In this document: positions 1,592 through 21,725 of the stretch, piece by piece | Numbering within the stretch: the stretch's first letter is position 1 | How the letters are laid out: every line of letters begins with the position of its first letter | Source: Kineococcus radiotolerans SRS30216 = ATCC BAA-149 | Lineage (GTDB): Bacteria > Actinomycetota > Actinomycetes > Actinomycetales > Kineococcaceae | Assembly: GCF_000017305.1 (NCBI RefSeq) | Contig: NC_009664.2 | Location: forward strand, 540,001 to 572,000 | Length of the DNA: 32,000 nucleotides | Direction of reading: 5' to 3' | Made by a program: the position numbers and the translations under genes | Notes under the pieces: model-generated | What the model was told of the DNA's origin: nothing | The model's input: only the letters and a program-made list of their open reading frames with translations | Databases searched by the model: none

Positions 1592-2620
1592 TCAGTGGGC
1601 GACGTCGGTCGCGAGGTCCGGCGCGATGCCGGCGGCGACGTCGATGGCGACGTCGGTGGTGCTCACGGTGCTGGTGGTGGTCGAGGAACCGCTGGTGCCG
1701 CTGGTGCCAGTGAGCTCCGCCGGGCCGTCCCCGGTGGGGATGCCGGCGGCGACCTCGGGCAGGAGGGCCTTGACCGCGTCCGAGCTCGGCGAGGCGACGA
1801 CCAGGTCGACGCGGCGGTTGCCCGTCAGCGCCTTGGGGTCCTCGTTCGGGTAGAGCGGGCGGCTGTCGGCGTAGCCGGTGCCCGAGAGGTGGTTGCCGGG
1901 GATGCCGGCGGCGGTGAAGCGCTGCACGACCGTCATGGCGCGGGCGGCCGAGAGGTCCCAGTTGTCCCGGTAGCGGGTGGTCGCGCTCAGCGAGAGCGAG
2001 TTCGTGTGCCCCTGCACGGCGATGTCGTTGGGCAGCTGCGCCAGGATCGGCGCGATGACGTCGAGCACCTCGCGGCCCTTCTCCTCGACCTCGGCGGAGG
2101 CGTTGGCGAAGAAGACGTTGTCCGCGACCAGCCCGACGACGAGGCCGTCGGAGGTGATCCGGTAGGTCACCTGGTCCTGGTCGCCCTTGGCGGTGAGGGC
2201 CGCGTCGATCTGCTTGGCGATCTCGCGGTAGTCCTGCACCTCCTCCTGGGCGGCCTTGAGGTCCTCCTGGGTCTGCGCGGTCTGCGCGGCCTGGAGGATC
2301 TTCCGCACCTCGGTGGACACGCTCTGCTGCAACGGCTGGCCCGTGGAGTTGGGCGTGATGTCGATGGGCATGTCGCCGTTGGTGGCCTCCAGGATCCCGG
2401 CGCTGCCCGAGACGGCCTGGTTGCTGCTGCTGGTGCCCTTGGTGAGGCCGTCCTTGAACTGGGCGAACTTCAGCTGGTCGATCTGGCTGAGGGCGAAGAG
2501 GACGATGAACAGCGCCATGAGGACCGTCAGCATGTCGGCGTAGGCCACCAGCCAGCGTTCGTGGTTGGCGTGCTCCTCGTGCTCCTCGTGCTTGTGGCGC
2601 CGCTTGTGCGCTGCCGACAT
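1592..2620 (-). CDS. motB: Flagellar stator protein MotB (OmpA-like peptidoglycan-binding domain, Ser/Thr-rich C-terminal tail)
   Basis: 342 aa. TM with the conserved Asp (ERWLVAYADMLTVLMALFIVLF). OmpA-like motifs (VQGHTNSL...NWDLSAARA...GYADSRP...NRRVDLVV). ATGA overlap with motA. Confidence 0.9.
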   Translation of the reverse strand: MSAAHKRRHKHEEHEEHANHERWLVAYADMLTVLMALFIVLFALSQIDQLKFAQFKDGLTKGTSSSNQAVSGSAGILEATNGDMPIDITPNSTGQPLQQSVSTEVRKILQAAQTAQTQEDLKAAQEEVQDYREIAKQIDAALTAKGDQDQVTYRITSDGLVVGLVADNVFFANASAEVEEKGREVLDVIAPILAQLPNDIAVQGHTNSLSLSATTRYRDNWDLSAARAMTVVQRFTAAGIPGNHLSGTGYADSRPLYPNEDPKALTGNRRVDLVVASPSSDAVKALLPEVAAGIPTGDGPAELTGTSGTSGSSTTTSTVSTTDVAIDVAAGIAPDLATDVAH

Positions 2621-3393
2621 CAGGCCGCCTTCGCGTCCGGGACCGTGGTGCCCGGGGGCAGCAGGCTCTCCAGCTTCTTGGCGACCGAGCGGGGGTTGGA
2701 GCCGGCCTGGATGGCGAGGATGCCCTCGACGACCAGTTCCATCTGCGCGGTCTCCAGCGCGGACAGGCGGGTCAGGCGGCTCTGCATCGGCAGGTAGAGG
2801 ATGTTCGCGCTGGCGACGCCCCAGAAGGTCGCGACGAACGCGCCGGCGATCATCGGGCCGAGCGCGGCGGCGTCGGAGAGGTTCGCGAGCACGACGGTGA
2901 GGGAGATGACGGTGCCGCAGATGCCGACGCTGGGGGCGTAGCCGCCCATGTCGCCGAAGATCTTCGCGCCCTGCTTGTCCGCGGCCTTCTTGGCCTGGAT
3001 CTGGGCGGTGAGGATCTCGTAGAGCTCGTCGGGGTCGGTGCCGTCGATCGCGGTCTGCAGGCCGTTGCGGAGGAACTCGTCGTCGACCTCCTTGATGGCG
3101 TCCTCGAGGGCCAGCAGGCCCTCGCGGCGGGCGCGCTCGGCCATCTTGACGATGGTGCCGACGGTCTCGCCGGCGTTCTTCGGCTTGCCCAGGAACGCCT
3201 TCTTGACCTGCTTGATGGTCCCGGCGGCGTCCTTGAGGGTGCCACCCATGACGCCAACGCCGATGGTCCCGATGATCACCAGGACCAGGGGGCCGACGAG
3301 CAGGATGTCCGTGAGCGAACCACCCTCGTGGTTCTGCGTCCAGAGGACGGCGGCGACGGTGACGACGAGACCGCCGATGAATGCGAAGTCCAT
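2620..3393 (-). CDS. motA: Flagellar stator protein MotA
   Basis: 257 aa, 4-TM MotA/TolQ/ExbB-type layout with a charged cytoplasmic loop (ERARREGLLALEDAI) and a C-terminal GTVISL...LGPMIAGAFVATFWGV...LYLP segment. Paired with motB. Confidence 0.9.
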   Translation of the reverse strand: MDFAFIGGLVVTVAAVLWTQNHEGGSLTDILLVGPLVLVIIGTIGVGVMGGTLKDAAGTIKQVKKAFLGKPKNAGETVGTIVKMAERARREGLLALEDAIKEVDDEFLRNGLQTAIDGTDPDELYEILTAQIQAKKAADKQGAKIFGDMGGYAPSVGICGTVISLTVVLANLSDAAALGPMIAGAFVATFWGVASANILYLPMQSRLTRLSALETAQMELVVEGILAIQAGSNPRSVAKKLESLLPPGTTVPDAKAA

Positions 3394-3861: not shown

Positions 3862-3898
3862 GAACACCCCCCTGGAGCGTTGCTCCAGAGGGGTGTTC
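3862..3898 (-). terminator. Strong stem-loop downstream of flgE (17-bp stem, 3-nt loop)
   Basis: GAACACCCCCCTGGAGC-gtt-GCTCCAGAGGGGTGTTC. On the minus-strand RNA the single imperfect position is a G-U pair. Followed on the sense strand by UCUCGUUG. Confidence 0.65.
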
Positions 3899-3906
3899 GG
3901 CACGTC

Positions 3907-3932
3907 CCCGGACCCGCTTGAGCGGGGCCGGG
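3907..3932 (-). terminator. Second stem-loop, 8 nt after the flgE stop (11-bp stem with one mismatch, TTGA/TCAA loop)
   Basis: CCCGGACCCGC-ttga-GCGGGGCCGGG read directly from the sequence. Confidence 0.5.
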
Positions 3933-5995: not shown

Positions 5996-7987
5996 TCAGA
6001 TGCTGAGGTCGAGGCGCCCGTCGGCGGCCGCGGCCGCGGTGCGGGCCGCGCTGCGGCGCTCGTCGGTGGCGAACAGCGACGCGCGCGAGCCCTGGCCGTA
6101 GCCGGGGCCGGGCTGCCGGCCCTGGGACCCGGCGGAGGAGCCCTGCTGACCCGCGCCGAACTGGGCGTCGGCGGACTGGCGCTGCTGGGAGCCGGAACCG
6201 GTGCTCACGTCGACGGTGGTCTGGGTGAAGCCGGAGCCGGACAGCTCCCGCTGCAGGTCGCCCACCGCGGCCTTCAGGGCGTGGCGGGCGGCCTCGGAGG
6301 CCCCGGCGAGGGAGACGTGCAGCGCTCCCCCGGTGACCTCGGCGGTGACCTTGACCGTGCCGAGCCCCTCCGGGGTGACCTCCACGGTCATCCGGTGCAC
6401 CGCGTCGGCCGCGGGCAGGTCGTCCAAGCGGGCCGCGACGCCCTGGGCGAAGGCGGCCGGGTTGGTCAGCGGCAGCGGCGCGGGCGGGGTCGAGGTGGTC
6501 GCGACGGCCGGGCTGCCGGTGACCGCGGTGCCCGTCACGGCCGGGGCGGTCGTGGGCACCGCGGTGGGGGTCGGGTCGACGACCTGGACCGGCGCCTTCA
6601 GCGCGGCCTGGGGAACGGCGGCCGTGGGCGACGCGGTCGGGCCGGCGACCGGGGCCACCGGCTGCTGCGGCACGGGGAACTCCCCCGCGGCGGTGCGCGG
6701 CGCGGCCGGCGCCACCGGCGAGGCCACCGGGCCGGGCTGACCCTGCTGGCCGGGCTGGCCCTGCTGGCCGGGCTGGCCCTGCTGGCCGGCCTGGCCGCCG
6801 GTGCCGGACTGCCCCGCCGGGGCGGCGGTCACGGCAGGGGCGCCCGACGGGGCGGGAGCCTCGACCGGGACCGGCTGGCCCTGCGGCGCAGCGGTGTTCG
6901 AGGGCACCGGGACGGCGGGGACGGGCGTTCCCGCGCCGGCCGGCTGCGGCGCGACGGAGGTGACCGCCTGCCCCGCGGCCGTGGCCGGGGCGGTCTGGTC
7001 GGTGAGCACGGCGTTCTTGATGACGTGCTGCGGCAGGCCCGTGAGCGCGGTCTGCACGGCCACCGGGGAGGCGGACGACGCGGCGGGGGCGGCGGGGGTG
7101 GAGGTGAGCGCGGCGCCGGCGAGCGTCGCCTCGGCCGGGGCGGCCGGGGCGGTGGGCGCAGCCGGGGCCGCCACGGCCGGGGCGATGGGCGCGGTGGAGG
7201 CGCCCGGCGTGGCGGGAGCGGCGACGGGGGCCGGGGCGGCCGGGGCGACTGCGGCGGGCGCGGGCTGGGCCCCCGGGACCGGGGCGGCCGGGACGGCCGG
7301 TACGGGCACGGTGGCGGTCTCCCCCGCACCCGGGGCGGGCACGGCGGCGGGGACCGCGGTCGCGACCGCCGGGACGCCCTCGACACCCACGACACCCGCG
7401 GCCGGCGCGGTCGCCGGGGCCGGGGTCTCGGTCCTGGGGGTCAGCGCGGCGCGCAGCGCGGCGGGCAGCCCGAGCAGCGAGGGGTCCACCGGGAGGGCGG
7501 GACCCGCGGGAGCCGCGGCGTCGGCCGCTTCGTCGGGGGTCCCGCCGGCGGTCTCGTCGGTGCCGCGGACGGCGTCGCCGCGGTGGGCCGCGGGGCCGGT
7601 GGCCTCGGTGGCCGCGGCGTCCTCGACGCGGGCGGGGTCGCGCTTGGTGCGCACGGCGGGCCGGTGCGCGGGCTCGGGGCGCTCGGGGCGGGTCTCCGCG
7701 GGGCGCTCGGGGCGGGGGTCCTCGCCGCGGGCCGGGGTCCCGGCGCGCGCGACGTCGTCCCGGGCGTCCCGCTGGTCCCGTGCGTCCCGGGCGTCGCGCT
7801 GGTCCCGTGCGTCCCGGGCGTCGCGCTGGTCCCGCGCGGTGGTGCGCAGGTCCTGCACGGCCTGCCCGAAGGAGTCGGCGAAGGCCGACCCGCTGTCGGA
7901 CCCCGTGGAGGAGCGTCCGGGCTCCCGCGCGGCCGGGGTCGGGAAGGGCAGCGTCGTCAGCGACGTCGTAGACAGGTTGGCGCTCAC
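5996..7987 (-). CDS. fliK: Flagellar hook-length control protein FliK (unusually long, Ala/Pro-rich, with in-frame tandem repeats)
   Basis: 663 aa. The C-terminal region (VHRMTVEVTPEGLGTVKVTAEVTGGALHVSLAGASEAARHALKAAVGDLQRELSGSGF) matches the FliK C-terminal (Flg_hook) domain pattern. Position between fliJ/hydrolase and flgD fits. The competing frame 5898..7994 is Arg/Pro junk. Confidence 0.8.
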   Translation of the reverse strand: MSANLSTTSLTTLPFPTPAAREPGRSSTGSDSGSAFADSFGQAVQDLRTTARDQRDARDARDQRDARDARDQRDARDDVARAGTPARGEDPRPERPAETRPERPEPAHRPAVRTKRDPARVEDAAATEATGPAAHRGDAVRGTDETAGGTPDEAADAAAPAGPALPVDPSLLGLPAALRAALTPRTETPAPATAPAAGVVGVEGVPAVATAVPAAVPAPGAGETATVPVPAVPAAPVPGAQPAPAAVAPAAPAPVAAPATPGASTAPIAPAVAAPAAPTAPAAPAEATLAGAALTSTPAAPAASSASPVAVQTALTGLPQHVIKNAVLTDQTAPATAAGQAVTSVAPQPAGAGTPVPAVPVPSNTAAPQGQPVPVEAPAPSGAPAVTAAPAGQSGTGGQAGQQGQPGQQGQPGQQGQPGPVASPVAPAAPRTAAGEFPVPQQPVAPVAGPTASPTAAVPQAALKAPVQVVDPTPTAVPTTAPAVTGTAVTGSPAVATTSTPPAPLPLTNPAAFAQGVAARLDDLPAADAVHRMTVEVTPEGLGTVKVTAEVTGGALHVSLAGASEAARHALKAAVGDLQRELSGSGFTQTTVDVSTGSGSQQRQSADAQFGAGQQGSSAGSQGRQPGPGYGQGSRASLFATDERRSAARTAAAAADGRLDLSI
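6732..6803 (-). repeat. In-frame 18-bp tandem repeat (3 good units plus 1 degenerate) inside fliK (encodes GQQGQP repeats)
   Basis: ccgggctgRccctgctgg at 6732, 6750 and 6768; a degenerate unit at 6786. Confidence 0.85.
7760..7840 (-). repeat. In-frame 27-bp tandem repeat x3 inside fliK (encodes RDQRDARDA x3)
   Basis: Units 7760-7786, 7787-7813 and 7814-7840 are near-identical (ccgggcgtcScgctggtcccgYgcgKY). Confidence 0.9.
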
Positions 7988-10906: not shown

Positions 10907-11688
10907 GCCGGGTCTCCGCTCGACCCTTCGGTACCCACGAGGGCTTCCAGGGCCCGGGAGACGCTGGCCCGCAGGCCCGCGTCCACCTCGGTGTCGCCCT
11001 GGCGCGCGACGGCGTCACCCGGTTGGACGGTGGGGTCAGGCAGGTAGGTCACGAGGTCTGCATCGGACGAAGCGTGCCGACCCTTGAGGGCGTCACCCGT
11101 CAGGGCGCTCAAGTCGGCCGGGTTGACGCGGACGGTGACCGGCTTCTCCCCGTCCAGGGGCCTCAGGGCCCGCTGGACGGCGTCGTGCACCGGGGAGCCG
11201 GCGAGGGTGACCTCGCGGTCCAGGACGGCGCCGGCGAGCTCCAGGGCGAGCTCCAGGACGGTGTCGGCCAGGGCCCCGATGCCGGGTTCGCGCTCGGCGC
11301 GCAGCGCCTCCCCGGCGGTGAAGAGGGCCTCCTCGGCCCGGTTGCGGGCCGCGCGCCGCTCCTCGCGGTCCAGCCGGGCCGCGGTCTCGGCGGCCTCGCG
11401 CTGCCGCTCCAGCTCGGCCGCGGCCTTCTCCGCGGCCTGGCGCATGCCCGCCGCCCAGCCCGCGGCGTAGCCCTCGGTGCGGGCGGACTCGCGGACCCGC
11501 TGCAGCGCCTCGGAGTCGTCGCGGCCGGTGAGGTCGAGACCGACGAAGCCCCGGGGGGAGGTGCTCGTCGCGGCCGGGACCGCGACGAACACCCGGGGCT
11601 CACGGGTCCCCGGCCGGGTGTCGGCCGGGGTGAACGCCCGCGACGAGGTCGCGGGACGGGACGCGTCACGCCACGAAGTCATCGTCAC
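10903..11688 (-). CDS. fliH: Flagellar assembly protein FliH (start uncertain: GTG 11688 or ATG 11682, both inside the fliG 3' end)
   Basis: 261 aa. Central charged coiled coil (AAEKAAAELERQREAAETAARLDREERRAARNRAEE) followed by a FliH-type C-terminal domain. Lies between fliG and fliI. GTGA overlap with the fliI start. Confidence 0.75.
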   Translation of the reverse strand: MTMTSWRDASRPATSSRAFTPADTRPGTREPRVFVAVPAATSTSPRGFVGLDLTGRDDSEALQRVRESARTEGYAAGWAAGMRQAAEKAAAELERQREAAETAARLDREERRAARNRAEEALFTAGEALRAEREPGIGALADTVLELALELAGAVLDREVTLAGSPVHDAVQRALRPLDGEKPVTVRVNPADLSALTGDALKGRHASSDADLVTYLPDPTVQPGDAVARQGDTEVDAGLRASVSRALEALVGTEGSSGDPA

Positions 11689-12694: not shown

Positions 12695-14308
12695 TCAGGA
12701 CCTCCGATCGGCGAGCCAGCCGCGGAGCAGTTCCGCGACTTCCTCGGGCTGGCGGGAGACGAGTTCGACGACCTCGGTGCGGCGGGCGGCCGCGGCCTCC
12801 AGGGCCGGGTCCACCGGTGCTGCTTCGAGCGCCACCGGCCTTTCGACCACCGGAGCGATTTCCTTGAGCTCCTCGTCCAGGCCGGTGATGTCGCCCAGCT
12901 GCAGCGGCTCGACGTCCAGGACGTCGACCGTCTCCACCTTGCGGCGGCGGAAGGCGACCAGGATGACGACCAGCATGATCAGGACGAGCAGGCCCAGGGC
13001 GGCGGTCTTGGCGTAGCCGATGAGGGTGGTCTGCTGGTCGGCCTCGTCGGCCGCGGCGAGCGCGGCGGCGGCCTCGGCCGCGGCGGTGTCGTCGAAGGCG
13101 GTCTTGACGACCGAGACGCTGTCCCCGCGGGTGGCGTCGATGCCCGCGGCCTGGTTGACGATCTGGGTGATCTGGTTGACGTCGGCGGCCCCGGCGGCGC
13201 CCTTCGCGCCGGCGTTGACGACGACGGAGACCGTCTGCTTCTCCAGCTTGCCCGGGGCCTGCTTGGTGACCGTGTCGATCTTGTTGATCGCGTTGTTGTT
13301 GGTCTCGGACTTCTTGGCGTAGCCGCCGCCGTTCTCGGCGTCGCCACCGGGCACGGCGATGTTGTCGGGGCCCAGGACACCGGTCGCGGCGGCGCCGGTG
13401 GTGCCCTCGTAGGTCTCCTCGGTCTTGGCCTCGGCCAGGGGGTCGATCTCCTGCGGCTGGCTGTAGGTCGTGGAGGACTCGGTCTTGTCGTCGTAGTTGA
13501 GGGTCGCCTTGACCGTCGCCTTGACGTTGCCCTTGCCGTAGACGCTCTCGAGGAAGGTCTGCAGGTCGGCGCTGGCCGAGGCGTTGTAGTCGCTGGTCTT
13601 CTCCTGCTGGGCGGAGGAGCCGGACCCGTCGGTGGAGAGGGTGTTGCCCTTGTCGTCGACCACCGAGACGTTCGCGGGGTCCATGCCCTCGACGCCGCCG
13701 GAGACGAGGTTGACGATGGAGGTCACCTGGTCGTTGGACAGCTCCTTGCCCGGGCGCAGCTTGACCAGGACCGACGCGGTGGTCGGGTCCTGCTCGTCGA
13801 GGAAGACGTCCTTCTGCGGGATGGCCAGGTTGACCACGGCCGACTCGACACCGTCGATCGACTCGATGGTGCTCTCCAGCTCACCCTGCAGGACCTTCTG
13901 GTAGGTCTTCTGCTGCATGAACTCCGAGGTGGTCACCTTCTGCTCGGTGAGCAGGGTGTAGCCGGAGCCGGTGTCGGCGGGCAGGCCCGCACCCGACATC
14001 GCCAGCCGCTCGCTGTCGACCACGTCGGCCGGCACCAGGATCGTGGCGCCGTTGTCGGCGAGCTGGTAGGGCACGCCGTCCGCGTCGAGCTTCTCCACCA
14101 TGGCGTTGGCGTCGGCGCCCGAGAGGTTCGAGAACATCGGGGTGTACGACGGGGTGGACGCCCACCGGGAGAAGAGGACGGCGCCGCCGAGGAGGGCGAC
14201 GACGACCGCGATGACGACCGCCTTCTGGCCGGTCGAGAAGGTCCGGAATCCGGAGACGAAGTTCTTGGCGTTCTCGACGATCGCCGCGCTTCCCTTGGCC
14301 TTGGCCAT
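12695..14308 (-). CDS. fliF: Flagellar MS-ring protein FliF
   Basis: 537 aa. N-terminal TM (AVVIAVVVALLGGAVLF), YscJ/FliF ring-building region (PSYTPMFSNLSGADANAMVEKLDADGVPYQL), second TM near the C-terminus (AALGLLVLIMLVVILVAF). Confidence 0.95.
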   Translation of the reverse strand: MAKAKGSAAIVENAKNFVSGFRTFSTGQKAVVIAVVVALLGGAVLFSRWASTPSYTPMFSNLSGADANAMVEKLDADGVPYQLADNGATILVPADVVDSERLAMSGAGLPADTGSGYTLLTEQKVTTSEFMQQKTYQKVLQGELESTIESIDGVESAVVNLAIPQKDVFLDEQDPTTASVLVKLRPGKELSNDQVTSIVNLVSGGVEGMDPANVSVVDDKGNTLSTDGSGSSAQQEKTSDYNASASADLQTFLESVYGKGNVKATVKATLNYDDKTESSTTYSQPQEIDPLAEAKTEETYEGTTGAAATGVLGPDNIAVPGGDAENGGGYAKKSETNNNAINKIDTVTKQAPGKLEKQTVSVVVNAGAKGAAGAADVNQITQIVNQAAGIDATRGDSVSVVKTAFDDTAAAEAAAALAAADEADQQTTLIGYAKTAALGLLVLIMLVVILVAFRRRKVETVDVLDVEPLQLGDITGLDEELKEIAPVVERPVALEAAPVDPALEAAAARRTEVVELVSRQPEEVAELLRGWLADRRS

Positions 14309-15637: not shown

Positions 15638-15678
15638 CCTTCGGCCCATCCACCGGGGGCCTTGAGCCCGAACGGGTG
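15638..15678 (-). promoter_or_regulatory. Promoter-like module upstream of flgB (candidate main promoter of the flagellar operon)
   Basis: Sense strand: CACCCGTTCGGG-CTCAAG-N16-(G)CCGAAGG, roughly 90 nt upstream of the flgB GTG at 15546. Confidence 0.4.
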
Positions 15679-15904: not shown

Positions 15905-15956
15905 CACCCGATCGGGCGATCCAGCCGCTCAAGTCCGCGGACCCGCGCGCCGAGGA
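15905..15956 (+). promoter_or_regulatory. Same promoter-like module, plus strand, upstream of the 717-aa membrane protein gene
   Basis: CACCCGATCGGGC-N10-CTCAAG-N16-(G)CCGAGGA-GGACGCC-ATG(15964). Same box order and spacings as the flagellar copies. Confidence 0.35.
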
Positions 15957-15963
15957 GGACGCC

Positions 15964-18117
15964 ATGACCACAGCGGACGAGACCACCGACCCGGGAACCG
16001 CGGCCCCCGCGGAGACGGTCGAACGGTTCAGCGACGCCGAGCTCGGCGCCCTGGCGATCGAGGCCGGTGAGCTGGCCGCGGCCGAGCCCGCCGAGCACCG
16101 CGCCACCGCGCTCGGCTCGCTCGCCGCGGCCCTGCGCGCCGGCGCCGACGGGCACGACGCCGCGGGCGTGGGTCAGCTGCGGCGCTGGGCCGACGCGGAC
16201 CTGTTCGAGGTCCTCGACGTCGACGCCGCGGTCGCCCCGCTGACCCAGCGCCGCAGCCTGCTGCGGTCGGGGTCGCTGCGCACCATCCTCGTCTTCGCCC
16301 CGGTCATGGTGACCTGGGTCGGCCTGCTGTTCGCCGGTCGCGCCTACGGCGACATGAGCGCCGCGGGCGAGGCCACCGACGGGGAGTCGTTCCTGCAGCT
16401 GTGGCTGGACGGCTTCGGCGGGCGCACCGCCTTCTCCCTGGACCACGTCGCGGAGATGGCGGTCGTGCTGATCGCCGGCGCCATCGCCATCAGCGTGGCC
16501 ACCGACCGGCGCCAGCGCGCCGACGAGGTCGGCGCGGCGAACGCCGACGAGGCCCACCGCCGGCTGCTGCGCGGGTTCGCCGCCCGCGCCACGGTGGCCC
16601 TGGCCCCGCACCGCGCCAACGCCGCCGAGCAGCTCGGCGCGCACTTCGAGCGGGGGCTGACCGAGCTGGGCCGGCTGGTGGCGGAGACGATCCGCCTGCA
16701 CGCCGACACCTCCGCCCTGGTCGCCACCGTGCGCAGCTCCAGCGAGACCGCCATCGTGGCCGCCAACGCCGCCAACACCGGCGGCGCCGACGTCGCCCGC
16801 GCCGCGCTGGAGCTGCAGACCGCCGTCACCGCCGCGGTCAGCAGCCACGGCGAGCTCATCGCCGCCGACCGCGAGCAGCACACCCGCACCCTGGCCGAGT
16901 CCACCGAGACGATCGTGGGGCACCTGGCGCAGGTGCGGGAGGGCACCGCGGAGGCGCTGCGGGAGGGCCTGCAGGGCCGCGACCGCGTCCTGTCGGCCGT
17001 GGAGGGCGTCAGCGCCTCCATCGAGCTGCTGTCGTCCTCGACCCGGGAGTCGATGGCCGCGCTGACCACCTCTGCGGAGGCGATGACCCGCCACGGCGCC
17101 GACTTCGGCGAGCGGGTCACCGGTCACGTCGCGGCGCTGTCGACCAGCGCCAAGGAGTCGGTGGAGACGATGCACCGCACGGTCGTGGAGAGCGTGGAGA
17201 AGGTCACCCGGATGACCGGGGAGGCCTTCAGCGAGCACGTCGCGGCCTCCGCCGAGCACGCCGCGACGACGATGGAGACGCTGCGCCGCGACGTCGAGCG
17301 CACCTCCGCCGCCGCCGAGTCCGCGCTGGGCACCGCCAGCCGGGTCCTGGCCACCGCCGCCGAGGCCGCGGAACGCCGCACCCGCCACGAGGAGCGCCTG
17401 AGCGACCTGCTGACCACCCAGAACGAGGTCCTGGACTCCTGGCGGGGCATCGAGAACCGCCTCGTGGAGGCCGCGCACGACATGCGCTCGGTCCCGCGCT
17501 GGATGGACCAGGTGCAGCACGAGCACGCCGACGCCACCGGCCGGGCGCTGCGCAGCATCGGCGACGCGCTGCGCGAGGACGTCACCGGGGCGGTCAGCGA
17601 GACCCTCGCGATGGCCTCCGACGACCACGTCCGCCAGGTCAACCGGGCCTACCGCGACGCCAGCCGCCAGCTGACCCAGGACCTCACCCAGACGCTGGGG
17701 TCCGGTCTGGGCACCGTCGTGGACCAGGTGATGGACCGCCTCGGCGACCAGGTCGACCAGCTCCCGGAGCGCATCGCCTCCGCCACCGCCCGTCAGCAGC
17801 GCCACCAGGTCCCCGCCGCGGCGCCCGCCCAGCACGCCCCCGCCCAGCACGCCCCCGAGCGCCGGCCGCAGCCGGCGCCGGAGCGTCGCCCCGTGCGCCC
17901 CGAGGCGCGCGCGCCGCAGGTCCAGCCCCGCCCCGAGGCCCGTCCCGAGCCGCGTCCGGAGACCCGCGTGGAGCTGCCCCGCGAGGAGCGTCGCCCCGTG
18001 CGCCCGGCCGAGCCGGAGCTGCACGCCGACTTCCAACCCGAGGAGCAGTTCGTGGCCGTCGCCCCGCGCACCCTGCAGGGCCTCGCCGCCCGCCGCTACT
18101 CCCGGGCCGGCCAGTGA
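15964..18117 (+). CDS. Hypothetical membrane protein: ~105-aa acidic cytoplasmic N-terminus, 2 TM helices, ~500-aa all-helical Ala/Glu/Arg/Thr-rich tail, Pro/Arg/Glu repeat C-terminus
   Basis: ATG 15964 is preceded by GAGGAGGA. TM1 LRTILVFAPVMVTWVGLLFAG (contains Pro); TM2 VAEMAVVLIAGAIAISVA (contains Glu). Long low-complexity helical region with no recognisable catalytic or MCP signalling motif. Tail repeats APAQHAPAQHAPERRP...ERRPVRP. Confidence 0.7.
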   Translation: MTTADETTDPGTAAPAETVERFSDAELGALAIEAGELAAAEPAEHRATALGSLAAALRAGADGHDAAGVGQLRRWADADLFEVLDVDAAVAPLTQRRSLLRSGSLRTILVFAPVMVTWVGLLFAGRAYGDMSAAGEATDGESFLQLWLDGFGGRTAFSLDHVAEMAVVLIAGAIAISVATDRRQRADEVGAANADEAHRRLLRGFAARATVALAPHRANAAEQLGAHFERGLTELGRLVAETIRLHADTSALVATVRSSSETAIVAANAANTGGADVARAALELQTAVTAAVSSHGELIAADREQHTRTLAESTETIVGHLAQVREGTAEALREGLQGRDRVLSAVEGVSASIELLSSSTRESMAALTTSAEAMTRHGADFGERVTGHVAALSTSAKESVETMHRTVVESVEKVTRMTGEAFSEHVAASAEHAATTMETLRRDVERTSAAAESALGTASRVLATAAEAAERRTRHEERLSDLLTTQNEVLDSWRGIENRLVEAAHDMRSVPRWMDQVQHEHADATGRALRSIGDALREDVTGAVSETLAMASDDHVRQVNRAYRDASRQLTQDLTQTLGSGLGTVVDQVMDRLGDQVDQLPERIASATARQQRHQVPAAAPAQHAPAQHAPERRPQPAPERRPVRPEARAPQVQPRPEARPEPRPETRVELPREERRPVRPAEPELHADFQPEEQFVAVAPRTLQGLAARRYSRAGQ
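17881..18005 (+). repeat. Exact 20-bp direct repeat in the 3' Pro/Arg-rich tail of the 717-aa gene (encodes ERRPVRP)
   Basis: gagcgtcgccccgtgcgccc at 17881-17900 and 17986-18005. Nearby is a 15-bp duplication gcccagcacgccccc (about 17827-17856). Confidence 0.85.
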
Positions 18118-18689
18118 GGCGCGCGGCACGCGGCGCGCGGCGCACCGCGGGGGGCGACAACCCCGCCGTGGGCCTGGCGGGCTGGGTCTTCGCCGACGCG
18201 CTGCTGGCCCTGACGATCATCGGCCTGGCCGCCGGGGGTGCGGTGCACGCCGGCATCGGGGAGTCGAAGGCCGTCGCCGCGACGGTGGCTCCCGCGGTGG
18301 TGCAGCCCACCCCCGCCCCGACGGTGACGGTGACCGCCCCGGCCCCGGCGCCGGTCGAGGCCCCGCCCATGCCCGCCGGGGTCGCCCAGGCGCCGGTCGT
18401 GGTGAGCATCAGCGTGGACGGGACCGACGACGAGGCCGTGCGCGCCGCGGTGGCCGGCGCGGTCGGCGAGCTCGCCGCCCAGGGCCGCCGGGCCGCGTTC
18501 GTGCTGACCTTCGGCACCGCCACCTCCCCCGGGGCGGGCACCGCCCTGGCCCGCCGGGTCAACGCCCAGCTGGACGTGGCCGCCCCGGCGGTCTTCGCCG
18601 GCTCGGCCAAGCGGGACTTCTGGCGCGCGGTGAACGCCGACTCCCCCCACCCCGGCGTGGTGCAGCTGGAGCTGTACCTCATCCAGTAG
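18114..18689 (+). CDS. Hypothetical single-pass membrane protein with a MotB/ExbD-like Asp-containing TM helix, Ala/Pro/Thr linker and ~110-aa extracytoplasmic alpha/beta domain
   Basis: GTG 18114 overlaps the upstream TGA (GTGA). Arg-rich N-terminus VRRAARGARRTAGG, then GWVFADALLALTIIGLAAGG (compare this window's MotB, WLVAYADMLTVLMALFIV). C-terminal segment VVVSISVDG...AFVLTFGTATSPGAGTALARRVNAQL...GVVQLELYL. In frame with the 3' part of ORF 16401..18689, whose 5' part is alternative-frame junk. Confidence 0.65.
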   Translation: MRRAARGARRTAGGDNPAVGLAGWVFADALLALTIIGLAAGGAVHAGIGESKAVAATVAPAVVQPTPAPTVTVTAPAPAPVEAPPMPAGVAQAPVVVSISVDGTDDEAVRAAVAGAVGELAAQGRRAAFVLTFGTATSPGAGTALARRVNAQLDVAAPAVFAGSAKRDFWRAVNADSPHPGVVQLELYLIQ

Positions 18690-18727
18690 GCCCCGCACCC
18701 AGCAGGTCCCGCGGCCCCGTCCGCACC

Positions 18728-18760
18728 GACACCCCTCCGGTCCCCGACCGGAGGGGTGTC
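18728..18760. terminator. Perfect 13-bp hairpin between convergent genes (bidirectional terminator candidate)
   Basis: GACACCCCTCCGG-tccccga-CCGGAGGGGTGTC, located between the stop of the 191-aa gene (18689) and the stop of the M56 peptidase gene (18806). Confidence 0.65.
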
Positions 18761-18805
18761 GTCGTCGGGGGCGGTCGCGGCGGGTGGTCGCGGCGCGGTC
18801 CGGGC

Positions 18806-19747
18806 TCAGCGCACCAGGGCCCGGTAGCTGGCCTGCAACCACGGCACGGCCACGGCCAGGGTCGGCCCGCCGAGCACGAGGACCGCCGCCACGTAGGTGG
18901 CCAGCGACAGCCCGCGCCGGGCCGGGCGGGCGGCGAGGCGGCGCACCCGGGCCAGGGCCGCGGAGCCGACGGGCATCTCCGCGCCCTCGCCCGAGGTGCA
19001 GTCCGGCTGGCCGGCGAGGGCCACCAGGGCCCGGGCCAGCGGCAGCGACCCGGCGCGGCGGCGGGCGCTGTCGTCGGCGAGCATCTCCACGAGCAGCCGC
19101 ACGGAGTCCAGGGCGGCCTGGCTGGAGACGACGCGCGGGAACGCGGCGTGCAGGGCGGTGAACCCCTCGAGGACGAGGTCGTGGCGGGCGCGCAGGTGGG
19201 CCCGTTCGTGGGCCAGGACCGCGCGCACCTCCTCGGGCGTCAGCGAGGCGAGCATGGCGTCGGAGACGACGACGCGGGAGTGGACCCCGGGCACGCAGTA
19301 GGCGACGCGGCCGGGTCCGGTGAGGACCCGCACCCCGGTCTCGGCCAGCAGGGCAGCGTCCACCTCGGAGGTGGACTCCTTGCGGTGCAGCAGGTCCACC
19401 ATGTCGCGGTGGCGGTTGCGGCGGCGTCGGGTGCGGATGCCGACGAGGGTGGCGACGACCCAGAACCGGACGGTGACCACCGCGACGAAGGTCGAGGTGA
19501 GGCCGATGAGGGTGGTCTGGACGGGGCCGTGGCGCTCGAGGAAGGGGAAGCCGGGTTCCTCGGTGAACAGCAGCGACAGCGAGGCCAGCCCGGCGCCGAG
19601 GGTGGCCAGGACCGCGCCCAGGGCGATGGCCTGCCAGAGCACGAGGGCGGCGCGGGGCACCTGCCAGGTCCAGCGGGCCCGGGCCAGCAGCGCGGGCCCG
19701 GGACCGGCCAGGAGCAGCGCCAGTGCTGCGAACCAGACGGCGGTCAC
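18806..19747 (-). CDS. M56-family (BlaR1-like) membrane zinc metallopeptidase lacking a penicillin-binding sensor domain
   Basis: 313 aa. N-terminal TM helices and the HEXXH motif in VLAHERAHLRARHD. Immediately downstream of a BlaI-family repressor gene (9-nt gap). Confidence 0.85.
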   Translation of the reverse strand: MTAVWFAALALLLAGPGPALLARARWTWQVPRAALVLWQAIALGAVLATLGAGLASLSLLFTEEPGFPFLERHGPVQTTLIGLTSTFVAVVTVRFWVVATLVGIRTRRRRNRHRDMVDLLHRKESTSEVDAALLAETGVRVLTGPGRVAYCVPGVHSRVVVSDAMLASLTPEEVRAVLAHERAHLRARHDLVLEGFTALHAAFPRVVSSQAALDSVRLLVEMLADDSARRRAGSLPLARALVALAGQPDCTSGEGAEMPVGSAALARVRRLAARPARRGLSLATYVAAVLVLGGPTLAVAVPWLQASYRALVR

Positions 19748-19756
19748 GCCTCGAAC

Positions 19757-20152
19757 CTACGGGGTGGGGGCGTCGTCCCCGTCCGCGCCGGTCGCCCCCA
19801 TGGCGTCGAGGGCTTCGCGCAGGGCGGCTGCTTCGGCCGGGGAGACACCACCGATGAAGTGCACCAGAGCGGCCTGCCGGTCGTCCACGGTGGGGACCCC
19901 CCCGAGGGCGTCGAGCATGAGCTCGGCGACCATCTGCTCGCGGGTGGCGGCGGGGGTGTAGCGGAAGGCGCGGCCCTCGCGCTCCTGGCGCACGACGTGC
20001 TTCTTGGCCAGGCGGTCCAGGACGGTCATGACGGTGGTGTAGGCGATCTTGCGGTGCTCGGCGAGCTGCTCGTGGACCTCGCGGACCGTCAGCGGGGACC
20101 GGGCCGCCCAGAGGCGGTCCATCACGTCTCGTTCGAGTTCACCCAGCGCCAC
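19757..20152 (-). CDS. BlaI/MecI/CopY-family winged-helix transcriptional repressor
   Basis: 131 aa. LGELERDVMDRLWAARSPLTVREVHEQLAEHRKIAYTTVMTVLDRLAKKHVVRQEREGRAFRYTP is the family's N-terminal DNA-binding domain pattern. GTG start with no SD, and a TAACAT box 6 nt upstream (possibly leaderless). Confidence 0.9.
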   Translation of the reverse strand: MALGELERDVMDRLWAARSPLTVREVHEQLAEHRKIAYTTVMTVLDRLAKKHVVRQEREGRAFRYTPAATREQMVAELMLDALGGVPTVDDRQAALVHFIGGVSPAEAAALREALDAMGATGADGDDAPTP

Positions 20153-20264: not shown

Positions 20265-21725
20265 GTGAGCATCGAGTCGCTGACCCGTCTGCAGTTCGCC
20301 GTGACCACGCTGTACCACTACCTCTTCGTCCCGCTCTCGATCAGCCTGGCGCTGTTCACCGCCCTCCTCCAGACCGCCCACCTGCGCGTGCGGGCCCGCA
20401 CCGCCCCGGGTGATCGCGCGGCGGAGCGCTACGGGCGGCTGTCGCTGCTCACCGGCAAGCTGCTCATGGTCACCTTCGCCGTCGGCGTCGTCACCGGCCT
20501 GGTCCAGGAGTTCCAGTTCGGCCTGTCCTGGAGCGCCTTCGCCCGCTTCTACGGCGACGTCTTCGGCCCCACCCTGGCCGTGGAGGGCATGCTCGCCTTC
20601 TTCCTCGAGGCGACCTTCCTGGGGCTGTGGTGGTTCGGGCGCGACCGGCTGCCCGCGCTGGTGCACCTGGCGACGATCTGGATCGTCGCGGTCGGCACCG
20701 CGATCTCCGCCTTCGTCATCCTCGCCGCGAACTCCTTCATGCAGAACCCCGTCGCCTACACGATCGACGAGACCACCGGGCGCGCGCGCCTGGGCAGCTT
20801 CCGCGACCTGCTGCTCAACGAGGTCAACCTCGCCGCCTTCCCCCACACCTACGCCGGGGCCGTCATGGCTGGCGGCGCCCTGGTCATGGCCGTCGGGGTC
20901 TGGCACCTGCTGCGCGGCGGGCACGCCGTCGGCTCCGAGGACTTCGCCGCCTTCCGCGCCCTCTCCCGCTTCGGCGCCTGGGCCACCCTGGCCGGCGGGG
21001 CGCTGGTCGCCGCCAGCGGCGACCTGCTCGGCAAGGTCATCACCGAGGTCCAGCCCATGAAGATGGCCGCCGCCGAGGGCCTCTACGAGACCACCACTGG
21101 CGCACCGTTCTCGATCTTCTCCTACGCCCCCCTCGGCTCCGACCGCCCCACGTTCGCGATCGAGGTCCCCGGGATGCTGTCCTTCCTGGCCAAGGGCTCC
21201 TTCTCCGCGGAGGTCCTGGGGCTGAAGGACCTGCAGGACGCCTACGCCGCGCAGTTCGGCGCCGGGGACTACACCCCCTGGATCCCGGTGGCGTTCTGGA
21301 GCTTCCGGCTCATGATCGGCGTCGGGATGCTCGCCGCCCTCGTCGCGCTGGTCCACCTGTGGGTCACACGGAAGTCCGCGGTACTCGACCCCGACCCGCG
21401 CCTGGCCCGCGGGATCCTCTGGACCCTGCCCGTCCTGCCGCTGCTGCCGCTGTTCGCCAACTCCTTCGGCTGGATCTTCACCGAGACCGCCCGCCAGCCC
21501 TGGCTGGTCTTCGGGCTCTTCAAGACCGCCGACGGGGTCTCCCCCGGGCTGTCCTTCGCCGAGGTCGCCCTCAGCCTCGCCGCCTTCACGCTCGTCTACG
21601 GCGCGCTGGCCTGGGCCTGGACGCTGCTGGTGACCCGCCTGGTGCGCCGGGGCCTGCCCGAGCTGCCCGTCCCCCAGCGCGAGGACGAGAGCCACGACCA
21701 CGACACCCACGCCGTCAGCTACTGA
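20265..21725 (+). CDS. cydA: Cytochrome bd oxidase subunit I
   Basis: 486 aa. LTRLQFAVTTLYHYLFVPLSISLALF..., Q-loop region, MKMAAAEGLYET. AGGAA 6 nt before the GTG. Confidence 0.95.
   Translation: MSIESLTRLQFAVTTLYHYLFVPLSISLALFTALLQTAHLRVRARTAPGDRAAERYGRLSLLTGKLLMVTFAVGVVTGLVQEFQFGLSWSAFARFYGDVFGPTLAVEGMLAFFLEATFLGLWWFGRDRLPALVHLATIWIVAVGTAISAFVILAANSFMQNPVAYTIDETTGRARLGSFRDLLLNEVNLAAFPHTYAGAVMAGGALVMAVGVWHLLRGGHAVGSEDFAAFRALSRFGAWATLAGGALVAASGDLLGKVITEVQPMKMAAAEGLYETTTGAPFSIFSYAPLGSDRPTFAIEVPGMLSFLAKGSFSAEVLGLKDLQDAYAAQFGAGDYTPWIPVAFWSFRLMIGVGMLAALVALVHLWVTRKSAVLDPDPRLARGILWTLPVLPLLPLFANSFGWIFTETARQPWLVFGLFKTADGVSPGLSFAEVALSLAAFTLVYGALAWAWTLLVTRLVRRGLPELPVPQREDESHDHDTHAVSY

Follow-up and report, generated by a model that had tools for sequence, protein, structure and literature searches.

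The gene pair

The subject of this analysis is a pair of overlapping genes, encoding a large and a small membrane protein, that lies beside the flagellar genes in a 32-kb stretch of the genome of Kineococcus radiotolerans (hereafter the window, to which coordinates refer unless another locus is named). The database entries that are 100% identical to the two proteins bear only the name 'hypothetical protein', and the family formed by the pair is uncharacterised, without a Pfam or NCBIfam model. The genes are divergent from flgB, and the GTG start codon of the small gene (18114-18116) overlaps the TGA stop codon of the large gene (18115-18117) within the tetranucleotide GTGA. Both points had been made in an original prediction, derived from the sequence of the window alone, according to which the pair could be a second, non-canonical stator-like complex co-regulated with motility or a Zorya-like remnant. 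The features of the genes and proteins are collected in Table 1.

The G+C content of the region is 76-80%, and for this reason several long spurious open reading frames (ORFs) occur in it in several frames, which is the argument for dismissing the two genes as chance ORFs as well. That explanation has practically no probability and is refuted by conservation: orthologues are found in constant order throughout the genus, hundreds of distant relatives retain invariant motifs, and the C-terminal domain of the small protein is predicted to fold with high confidence; therefore, both ORFs are real genes. The Kineococcus orthologues of the two proteins (11 in the case of the large protein) are 57-88% identical to those of K. 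radiotolerans, and the gene order fliF-flgC-flgB, pair, M48 peptidase/BlaI, cydA is found in all Kineococcus loci with enough flanking sequence.

A scan of one genome per species together with a scan of metagenomes yielded 104 loci. Of the 47 loci outside Kineococcus with 1.5 kb or more of sequence before the small gene, 43 encode the N-terminal domain of the large protein immediately ahead of it and in the same orientation. A start/stop overlap of four nucleotides is present in 39 of 45 delineated pairs (22 of 28 outside the genus). By these measures the two genes are a unit, tightly co-conserved and, to judge by the overlap, translationally coupled, so that the coupling assumed in the original prediction extends well beyond the genus. 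In several non-actinobacterial loci a conserved protein of ~430-700 amino acids without a family match is encoded directly upstream of the large gene (Table 1), and this protein could be a third component.

Table 1. Coordinates of the gene pair, of the predicted segments of its proteins, and of associated features, in the window unless another locus is named (aa, amino acids; TM, transmembrane helix; pLDDT, predicted local distance difference test score)
Feature	Coordinates	Strand	Extent	Remarks and basis
Large gene	15964-18117	+	717 aa	ORF and translation
Large protein: N-terminal helical domain, predicted cytoplasmic	16021-16248	+	aa 20-95	conserved Trp75 and Asp79; AlphaFold2 block-mean pLDDT 70-91 (residues 21-90), conservation
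Large protein: predicted TM1	16273-16341	+	aa 104-126	signature LVF-x-P113-xxx-T117-W118-xGLxxA124
Large protein: predicted extracytoplasmic loop	16342-16437	+	aa 127-158	invariant F143-L144-x-L-W147-xxGFxG(R/H) motif
Large protein: predicted TM2	16438-16506	+	aa 159-181	Glu164 conserved within Kineococcus only; rest of helix poorly conserved
Large protein: long all-helical tail, predicted cytoplasmic	16507-17799	+	aa 182-612	AlphaFold2 secondary structure, low confidence
Large protein: Pro/Arg/Glu-rich disordered segment (aa 613-705), then C-terminal peptide	17800-18114	+		pLDDT <50
Small gene	18114-18689	+	191 aa	ORF and translation
Small protein: single TM	18165-18233	+	aa 18-40	G23-W24-V-F-A27-D28 motif; conservation, profile matches
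Small protein: Ala/Pro/Thr-rich disordered linker	18234-18383	+	aa 41-90	AlphaFold2 confidence
Small protein: predicted extracytoplasmic alpha/beta domain	18384-18686	+	aa 91-191	b-a-b-a-b-b, motif RRAAFVLTFGT; AlphaFold2
WhiG1/FliA (sigma-28)-type promoter motif	15928-15956	+		CTCA(AG)-N15-GCCGAGGA
CTCAAG-N15-GCCGA	15928-15953	+		11 nt before large-gene ATG
CTCAAG-N15-GCCGA	15641-15666	-		upstream of flgB
CTCAAG-N15-GCCGA	3897-3922	-		between flgE and flbD, upstream of flbD-motA-motB-fliL
Inverted repeat, perfect	18727-18761	strandless	16 bp, 3-nt loop	between small gene and convergent M48/M56 peptidase gene
Conserved protein upstream of large gene, locus L052	6194-7480			possible third component
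Conserved protein upstream of large gene, locus L064	6425-7714			possible third component
Conserved protein upstream of large gene, locus L056	6127-8241			possible third component

The small protein resembles motor B subunits in its membrane helix

The small protein consists of an Arg-rich N-terminus, a transmembrane (TM) helix, a disordered linker and a C-terminal domain, the AlphaFold2 model of which has the order b-a-b-a-b-b, and the layout given in the original prediction is thus borne out by both sequence and model. The N-terminus is predicted to be cytoplasmic, a topology that fits its arginine content and the layout of the model. The pLDDT is below 50 at residues 41-66 of the linker and its means over blocks of ten residues stay below 60 up to residue 80, while the block means of the C-terminal domain are mostly above 90. 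No family of Pfam, NCBIfam or PADLOC was matched by the protein, and the Pfam families ExbD, OmpA and MotB_plug gave no match to it at E<=1.

A profile searched exhaustively against 1.84 billion cluster representatives delimited a family of 668 clusters at E<=1e-3, 284 of which are found at E<=1e-10. Among 120 representatives with 24-46% identity, Trp24 and Asp28 (codon GAC, 18195-18197) are the only invariant residues and Gly23 and Ala27 are nearly so; Asp28 is also invariant in 26 close relatives, and the conservation of the membrane aspartate in orthologues, on which the original prediction had staked its case, is therefore complete in these two sets. W-x-x-[AGS]-D was found in 140 of 147 representatives; most of the seven without it resemble N-terminally truncated fragments. 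Linker length ranges from ~40 residues to more than 250, and inserted domains occur in some members: in P0090, P0132, P0114 and P0160, an extra beta-rich insert or a Pro/Thr/Ala-rich linker of 150-250 residues separates the TM helix from the conserved C-terminal domain. Because these inserts and linkers differ among members, the extracytoplasmic reach of the small subunit seems to be tuned.

ExbBD and TolQR are 5:2 proton motors in which ExbD and TolR are the B subunits. When the full-length family profile was searched against the PDB, the best match was E. coli ExbD (6tyi_Y, E=0.02), with F-A-D28-L-L-L of the family aligned to F-I-D25-V-M-L. A profile of the TM region alone (A9; 44 sequences, 38 columns), searched against 177,635 distinct PDB sequences at E<=10, returned nine matches, of which four are TolR, four are ExbD and one is ZorB (8qyd_F, from the Zorya cryo-EM study); D28 falls on D23 of TolR and D25 of ExbD, and the ZorB match spans Asp26. 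The individual E-values of 0.4-3.7 are poor because the profile is so short, and the weight of this search lies in the exclusiveness of the match list rather than in any single value. Alignment of the family to E. coli ExbD by hhalign gave a probability of 84.8% (E 6.6e-6) and to TolR 35%. Sub-threshold Pfam matches were found in six of the 120 members, four to ExbD (PF02472, best E 0.055) and two to MotB_plug (PF13677, best E 0.032).

The C-terminal domain gave no such indications. Its hhalign probability with the C-terminal domain of ExbD is 2.4%, its profile had no relevant match in the PDB, and a Foldseek search with the model of the small protein produced only weak, generic alpha/beta matches to the PurM/HypE/ThiL enzyme family, FtsZ and chorismate mutase. 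The peptidoglycan-binding domain of SiiA, which appeared in that search at rank 7 (E 7e-3, root-mean-square deviation 7.7), was rejected as too weak a match to use. The alignment of the TM helix with that of the MotB encoded in the window, which the original prediction had put forward, also proved weak: hhalign gave 5-11% for the two proteins, and when the TM-only family profile was run over all six frames of the window, the small ORF alone scored and MotB was outside the top matches. The MotB/ExbD/ZorB-type subunit that had been proposed can therefore be retained with respect to the TM helix, with its aspartate, its nine PDB matches and its alignment to ExbD, and is abandoned with respect to the C-terminal domain, which is unlike those of OmpA and ExbD. 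The helix is regarded here as ExbD/TolR/ZorB-like, by homology or by convergence, and the protein is not filed in any of those families.

The comparison with ExbD and TolR can be drawn further. They, too, are small single-pass proteins with the N-terminus inside and an essential aspartate close to where the TM helix leaves the cytoplasm, after which come a hydrophobic run (D-V-M-L-V-L-L-I-I-F-M, as against D-L-L-L-x-L-x-x-x-F-L in the small protein), a linker and a small extracytoplasmic alpha/beta domain, and they account for eight of the nine matches of the TM profile. On the other hand, the small protein has no significant match to Pfam ExbD, its C-terminal domain is unrelated by sequence and unrecovered by fold search, its linker is long and Pro/Thr-rich, its partner is not ExbB or TolQ, and its host, a monoderm actinobacterium, lacks an outer membrane that could be energised.

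The large protein has two predicted TM helices and a long tail

The large protein is predicted to span the membrane twice, with the N-terminal domain and the tail both in the cytoplasm and the loop outside, because the sequences RRSLLRSGSLR before TM1 and TDRRQR after TM2 obey the positive-inside rule. Its AlphaFold2 model contains confident N-terminal helices, a short helix in the loop between TM1 and TM2, and a short C-terminal helix after the disordered segment; the C-terminal peptide EEQFVAVAPRTLQxLAARRY is kept throughout the genus. The segment after TM2 is 503-670 residues long in Kineococcus, compared with about 200-450 residues elsewhere. The core shared with distant homologues runs from LVF-x-P113-xxx-T117-W118-xGLxxA124xxAY128 in and after TM1 to F143-L144-x-L-W147-xxGFxG(R/H) in the loop. 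Pro113 and Trp118 are invariant and Thr117 is 97% conserved in 39 diverse sequences that were chosen for carrying the TM1 motif, which is present in 38 of 57 called upstream ORFs. The TM hairpin with an intramembrane proline and glutamate described in the original prediction is accordingly half upheld, since Pro113 is invariant in this motif-selected set and Glu164 is restricted to Kineococcus; the very long helical tail is recovered in the model, which is helical to residue ~612.

Relatives of this protein among known families were sought in several ways. It matched no family of Pfam (PF01618 included), NCBIfam or PADLOC; comparison of its N-terminus to the MotA of the window by hhalign was negative; a profile of its TM region, searched against the PDB and Pfam as a control for the search made with the small protein, returned only unrelated noise and neither an A subunit nor GldL/PorL; and Foldseek returned nothing below E=1 and no GldL/PorL, a result that is uninformative for a model with an overall pLDDT of 56. 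The resemblance to ZorA or GldL/PorL suggested at the outset has thus found no counterpart in sequence (Pfam, hhalign, PDB profile) or fold (Foldseek). Weak profile matches of the tail to apolipoprotein, SMC and ZorA tails are likely compositional. A word-indexed search with the N-terminal profile retrieved only three proteins.

A flagellar promoter motif precedes the pair in Kineococcus

The sequence CTCAAG-N15-GCCGA occurs exactly three times in the 32 kb, each time upstream of genes (flbD, flgB and the large gene), in agreement with the promoter-like module that the original prediction had seen to be common to the pair and the flagellar genes. With at most one mismatch there are six matches compared with 0.81 expected, a number reached by none of 100 shuffled sequences. 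To judge by the site at 3897-3922, the stator operon may have an internal sigma-28 promoter of its own, and two one-mismatch copies lie inside the flagellar cluster (11063-11088 and 12843-12868, both on the minus strand). The consensus of WhiG1, the flagellar sigma-28 clade of Actinomycetota, has been given as CTCA-N16-17-GCCGA and was searched within 200 bp upstream of start codons (PMC12871210); the motif of the large gene, read as CTCA-N17-GCCGA, fits both the consensus and the distance rule. A scan for sigma-70 promoter consensus sequences and for the classical pattern TAAA-N15-GCCGATAA found nothing. If the motif is functional, the mRNA of the large gene would be leaderless or nearly so, because only 7 nt separate the end of the -10-like element from the ATG.

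The motif is kept in divergent orientation on both sides of the spacer between flgB and the large gene in most Kineococcus species, and was absent upstream of the large gene in the five distant loci that were checked (L020-L024). Because the motif matches the WhiG1/FliA consensus, co-regulation of the pair with motility is plausible in Kineococcus. No flagellar genes were found within 10 kb of any distant locus; linkage to flagellar loci, proposed as a trait of the pair in general, is thus peculiar to Kineococcus, and because it exists only inside this genus the pair is not a general flagellar component. What can be kept of a second stator-like complex co-regulated with motility is the B-type TM helix, the coupling of the genes and the shared motif, and what has to be given up is similarity to MotA/ExbB and a general link to flagella.

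Relatives outside Kineococcus adjoin genes of conflict systems

In Virgisporangium, Actinopolymorpha, a metagenome-assembled actinomycete genome and many metagenomic contigs, genes for a vWA protein, a PP2C phosphatase and one or two kinase-like proteins directly follow or precede the pair. Roughly half of the loci with long flanks have such a vWA-PP2C-kinase triad beside the pair (for example, L020, L021 and L022), and a vWA gene is immediately downstream of the pair in 17 of 56 loci. A vWA protein, a PP2C phosphatase and a Ser/Thr kinase are the components of the TerY-P triad, which has been tied to defence in the literature; TerY-P-like triads are reported to be stand-alone defence systems (Gao et al. 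2020, as cited). The triads here, examined at L022, matched no PADLOC model at E<=0.01. In the window and within 10 kb on each side of the pair in Kineococcus, the TerY-P triad is absent.

Other settings are also recurrent. In two Actinoplanes genomes the pair is at the edge of an 'FtsH ternary' system of EAD1-caspase (CHAT), E1, E2, JAB and AAA+ proteins, and at other loci it adjoins genes for Tubulin_2 and vWA proteins or for an LRR-Roc protein and a STAND-like regulator. The Actinopolymorpha rutila locus (L022, 16-15149) has the look of a defence island, with BrxD, BrxHI, a GajB-like UvrD helicase, an exonuclease resembling RNase T and, as judged by eye, a transposase of the IS256 type, after which come the pair, vWA, PP2C, two kinase-like genes and a TM protein with a receiver domain; PADLOC matched BrxD, BrxHI and the GajB-like protein among these neighbours and no Zor proteins. 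At L079 (459-10827), and similarly at L093 and L098, the pair occurs as a low-G+C variant whose small subunit has 332-353 residues; next to it come a Zn-ribbon protein, then a large vWA protein and a protein of ~1115 residues with a Tubulin_2 domain, a set that recalls the tubulin-vWA theme of the GAP1-N2 systems (Kaur et al. 2020).

ZorC/D-type genes were not found among the neighbours examined, which in the window are flagellar genes, an M48/M56 peptidase gene and blaI. The 'Zorya-like' idea of the original prediction therefore gains from the contexts (TerY-P-like triads, a BREX island, EAD/FtsH-ternary systems) and loses from the lack of ZorC/D among the neighbours.

A tentative model of the complex and its alternatives

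The pair may tentatively be interpreted as a hetero-oligomeric, stator-like and Zorya-like, ion-coupled transducer complex with a new type of A subunit, which resembles the MotAB/ExbBD/TolQR/ZorAB motors in construction and probably also in operation and was drawn into the flagellar regulon in Kineococcus; this is the interpretation preferred here, although confidence in it falls somewhat short of even. In the assembly, stoichiometry, ion coupling and biological role that we infer, the small protein would be the B-type subunit, with a cytoplasmic N-terminus, a protonatable Asp28 next to Trp24 in the membrane, and a Pro/Thr-rich linker that carries into the cell wall the alpha/beta domain, which probably anchors or dimerises. 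The large protein would be an A-type subunit of a new kind, with Pro113, Thr117 and Trp118 of TM1 facing Asp28 and the long cytoplasmic tail acting as its counterpart does in ZorA. A 5:2 architecture receives indirect support from the translational coupling of the genes and from the conserved Pro, Thr and Trp of TM1. With the proton-motive force as driver, Asp28 would gain and lose a proton and thereby shift the large subunits against the small ones, which would be anchored in the wall, and the tail would relay this movement or state to cytoplasmic partners, which in most lineages would be the vWA-PP2C-Ser/Thr-kinase (TerY-P-like) triad or other conflict modules. Since the partners in most lineages are triads or modules of conflict systems, the ancestral role was probably that of an envelope-linked sensor/transducer (or effector) of a defence or signalling system, and the diversity of the conflict modules next to the pair points to a reusable component of the envelope, be it sensor, transducer or effector. 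Kineococcus would have kept the membrane pair alone, lengthened the tail by about 240 residues and put the operon under the flagellar sigma factor. The complex is probably made together with the flagellum and stator in this genus, because the triad is absent within 10 kb, the tail is longer and a sigma-28 (WhiG1/FliA) motif lies upstream; its function is probably tied to motility, for example as a guard against phages that depend on the flagellum or in association with the motor.

Three known systems are informative for this model. In Zorya, as here, a membrane pair combines one subunit that has a TM aspartate and an extracytoplasmic domain with another that has a very long cytoplasmic helical tail; both have variable soluble partners from conflict systems and occur in defence islands, ZorB is among the matches of the TM profile, and the Pro/Thr/Trp of TM1 in the large protein parallels the Thr/Ser/Pro around the aspartate in ZorA. 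MotA likewise has Thr/Ser/Pro around the aspartate of the B subunit. However, ZorA resembles MotA/ExbB in its TM domain, a likeness not shared by the large protein with its two TM helices; the small protein lacks the OmpA-like peptidoglycan-binding domain of ZorB; and instead of ZorC/D/E/F/G, none of which was found here, the partners are vWA-PP2C-kinase triads and other modules. GldL/GldM (PorL/PorM), the only known precedent for a 5:2-type motor with a non-MotA A subunit, demonstrates that an A subunit can make do with two TM helices, and GldL also has a cytoplasmic extension and is not recognised as MotA-like by sequence searches; the large protein matches GldL neither by sequence nor by fold, GldM has a very large periplasmic domain, and the key charges of GldLM are an arginine in GldM and a glutamate in GldL, whereas here there is an aspartate on the single-pass subunit. 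As for the TerY-P triad, distant relatives of the pair stand directly beside it in what is apparently a five-gene operon, for example at 8820-14209 of L022 (Actinopolymorpha rutila) and at 8235-13031 of L020 (Virgisporangium), whereas the triad is missing at the Kineococcus locus and the triads found here are unmatched by PADLOC models.

Several observations weigh against the model, and some of them also speak for a passive membrane scaffold, in which the tail tethers or organises cytoplasmic partners, the Trp/Asp motif serves helix-helix recognition without ion coupling, and the likeness to ExbD/TolR is convergent. The large protein has no detectable relation to MotA, ExbB, TolQ, ZorA or GldL, or to any other motor A subunit; its model is of low confidence; and the matches of PADLOC ZorA (E 7e-5 to 0.08) are confined to the tail of the ZorA models, with none in the TM domain, and likely reflect coiled-coil composition, just as the variable tails of the family are apolipoprotein-like or coiled-coil-like in composition. 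The C-terminal domain of the small protein, neither ExbD-like nor OmpA-like by Pfam, Foldseek and profile search of the PDB, is of no recognised type. The matches to B subunits are singly non-significant and confined to the hydrophobic helix, none reaching family significance (E 0.02 to 3.7 in the PDB; Pfam ExbD and MotB_plug far below their cut-offs), and of the ExbD and TolR sequences used with hhalign, only residues 23-61 of ExbD and 23-39 of TolR were confirmed by PDB matches. The TM helix may have converged on its counterparts, because the likeness consists of ~20 hydrophobic residues and a low-complexity linker. A passive scaffold nevertheless remains a rather unlikely explanation: an unpaired acidic residue that is invariant in the membrane across hundreds of clusters is costly unless functional, the TM helices of the partner contain no conserved basic residue to pair with Asp28, and it is hard to put down to chance that nine of nine PDB matches are B subunits of motors. 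Further points that tell against the preferred model concern its context: some loci have no defence genes nearby (L052 and L064, beside glp genes, and L106), no relatives were found in collections of phages, plasmids and viral contigs, and the promoter has been recognised by its motif only.

Stator units are gated proton channels, and the pair might accordingly be the membrane-depolarising effector of a TerY-P-like system, the switch of which opens a channel at Asp28 so that the proton-motive force is lost in abortive infection, Kineococcus having retained the effector pair only. The position of the pair directly beside vWA-PP2C-kinase triads and in defence islands is compatible with this, as is the reported stand-alone action of such triads in defence (Gao et al. 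2020, as cited). This reading is nevertheless improbable: long retention of the orphan pair under purifying selection in Kineococcus, with a flagellar promoter, would be odd for a toxic effector deprived of its controller, and a long conserved tail together with an extracytoplasmic domain points more to sensing or transduction than to a simple pore. A dedicated flagellar component in Kineococcus, whether a second, non-canonical stator or an accessory of the stator or basal body required for flagellar rotation, assembly or localisation, would account for the divergence from flgB, the sigma-28-type motif common to flgB and flbD-motAB-fliL, and the synteny in all Kineococcus loci with enough flank. 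The same motif precedes the operons of the pair and of MotA/MotB, and both small subunits have a TM helix of the W...AD type and an extracytoplasmic C-terminal domain; however, the spacing of W to AD differs by two residues, the small protein has neither plug nor OmpA domain, and the large protein is unrelated to MotA. Moreover, canonical MotA (2620-3393, minus strand) and MotB (1592-2620, minus strand) are encoded in the same cluster, the relatives outside the genus lie beside conflict genes with no flagellar genes within 10 kb and, in L020-L024, no motif, and PF01618 is unmatched, so that the large protein is without the cytoplasmic features by which MotA contacts FliG. A purely flagellar role is therefore thought quite improbable.

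Neighbouring features of the locus

The inverted repeat downstream of the small gene is not followed by a run of T, and a scan for terminator consensus sequences found none; it is probably a bidirectional terminator of an actinobacterial style that closes the operon. As it precedes a convergent gene, the operon would therefore consist of just two genes. Directly downstream (18806-20152, minus strand) are a BlaR1-like M48/M56 membrane peptidase and a repressor of the BlaI/Penicillinase_R type, and cydA starts at 20265; in a few Kineococcus species, extra DNA lies between the gene pair and this block, the order being otherwise constant. An M48 peptidase gene also lies beside the pair in L106 and was considered as a shared neighbour, but because the peptidase is not orthologous to that of Kineococcus the adjacency is coincidental. 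Within the flagellar cluster, a very Pro/Ala/Gly-rich ORF of 663 residues (5996-7987, minus strand) contains 9-nt tandem repeats (6706-6825, GQPGQQ-type), and its C-terminus resembles, by eye, the FliK hook-length control domain. A search for direct repeats found only G+C-rich coding repeats.

Significance of the pair

In its most far-reaching form, which is possible and at the same time doubtful, the model would make the pair the founder of a novel class of ion-driven motors or transducers in the membrane, in which an Asp-bearing axle is ringed by a two-TM, long-tailed subunit, and which serves conflict systems of Actinomycetota and other phyla (TerY-P-like, FtsH-ternary/EAD, tubulin-vWA) as a plug-in envelope sensor and has been domesticated into the sigma-28 regulon of Kineococcus. 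No description of the pair was found in the literature searched, including that on TerY-P and FtsH-ternary themes, the coverage of which was incomplete, so that an earlier description is possible.

If the model is correct, the principle of the 5:2-type motor extends to a family with a non-MotA A subunit, and monoderm Actinomycetota possess an ExbD/TolR-like protein with no outer membrane to serve. The pair would then be the missing membrane input/output module of TerY-P-like kinase/phosphatase/vWA systems and a second, independent case of the principle known from Zorya, where a long-tailed proton motor anchored in the wall informs effectors in the cytoplasm of events at the envelope. Even without the idea of a motor, a family of about 700 clusters has been delimited, with an invariant membrane aspartate, an obligatory partner and a defined signature, for which Pfam and NCBIfam have no model. 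Kineococcus, in which the module is found without signalling partners and apparently under the flagellar sigma factor, would be a tractable natural experiment linking motility and envelope surveillance.

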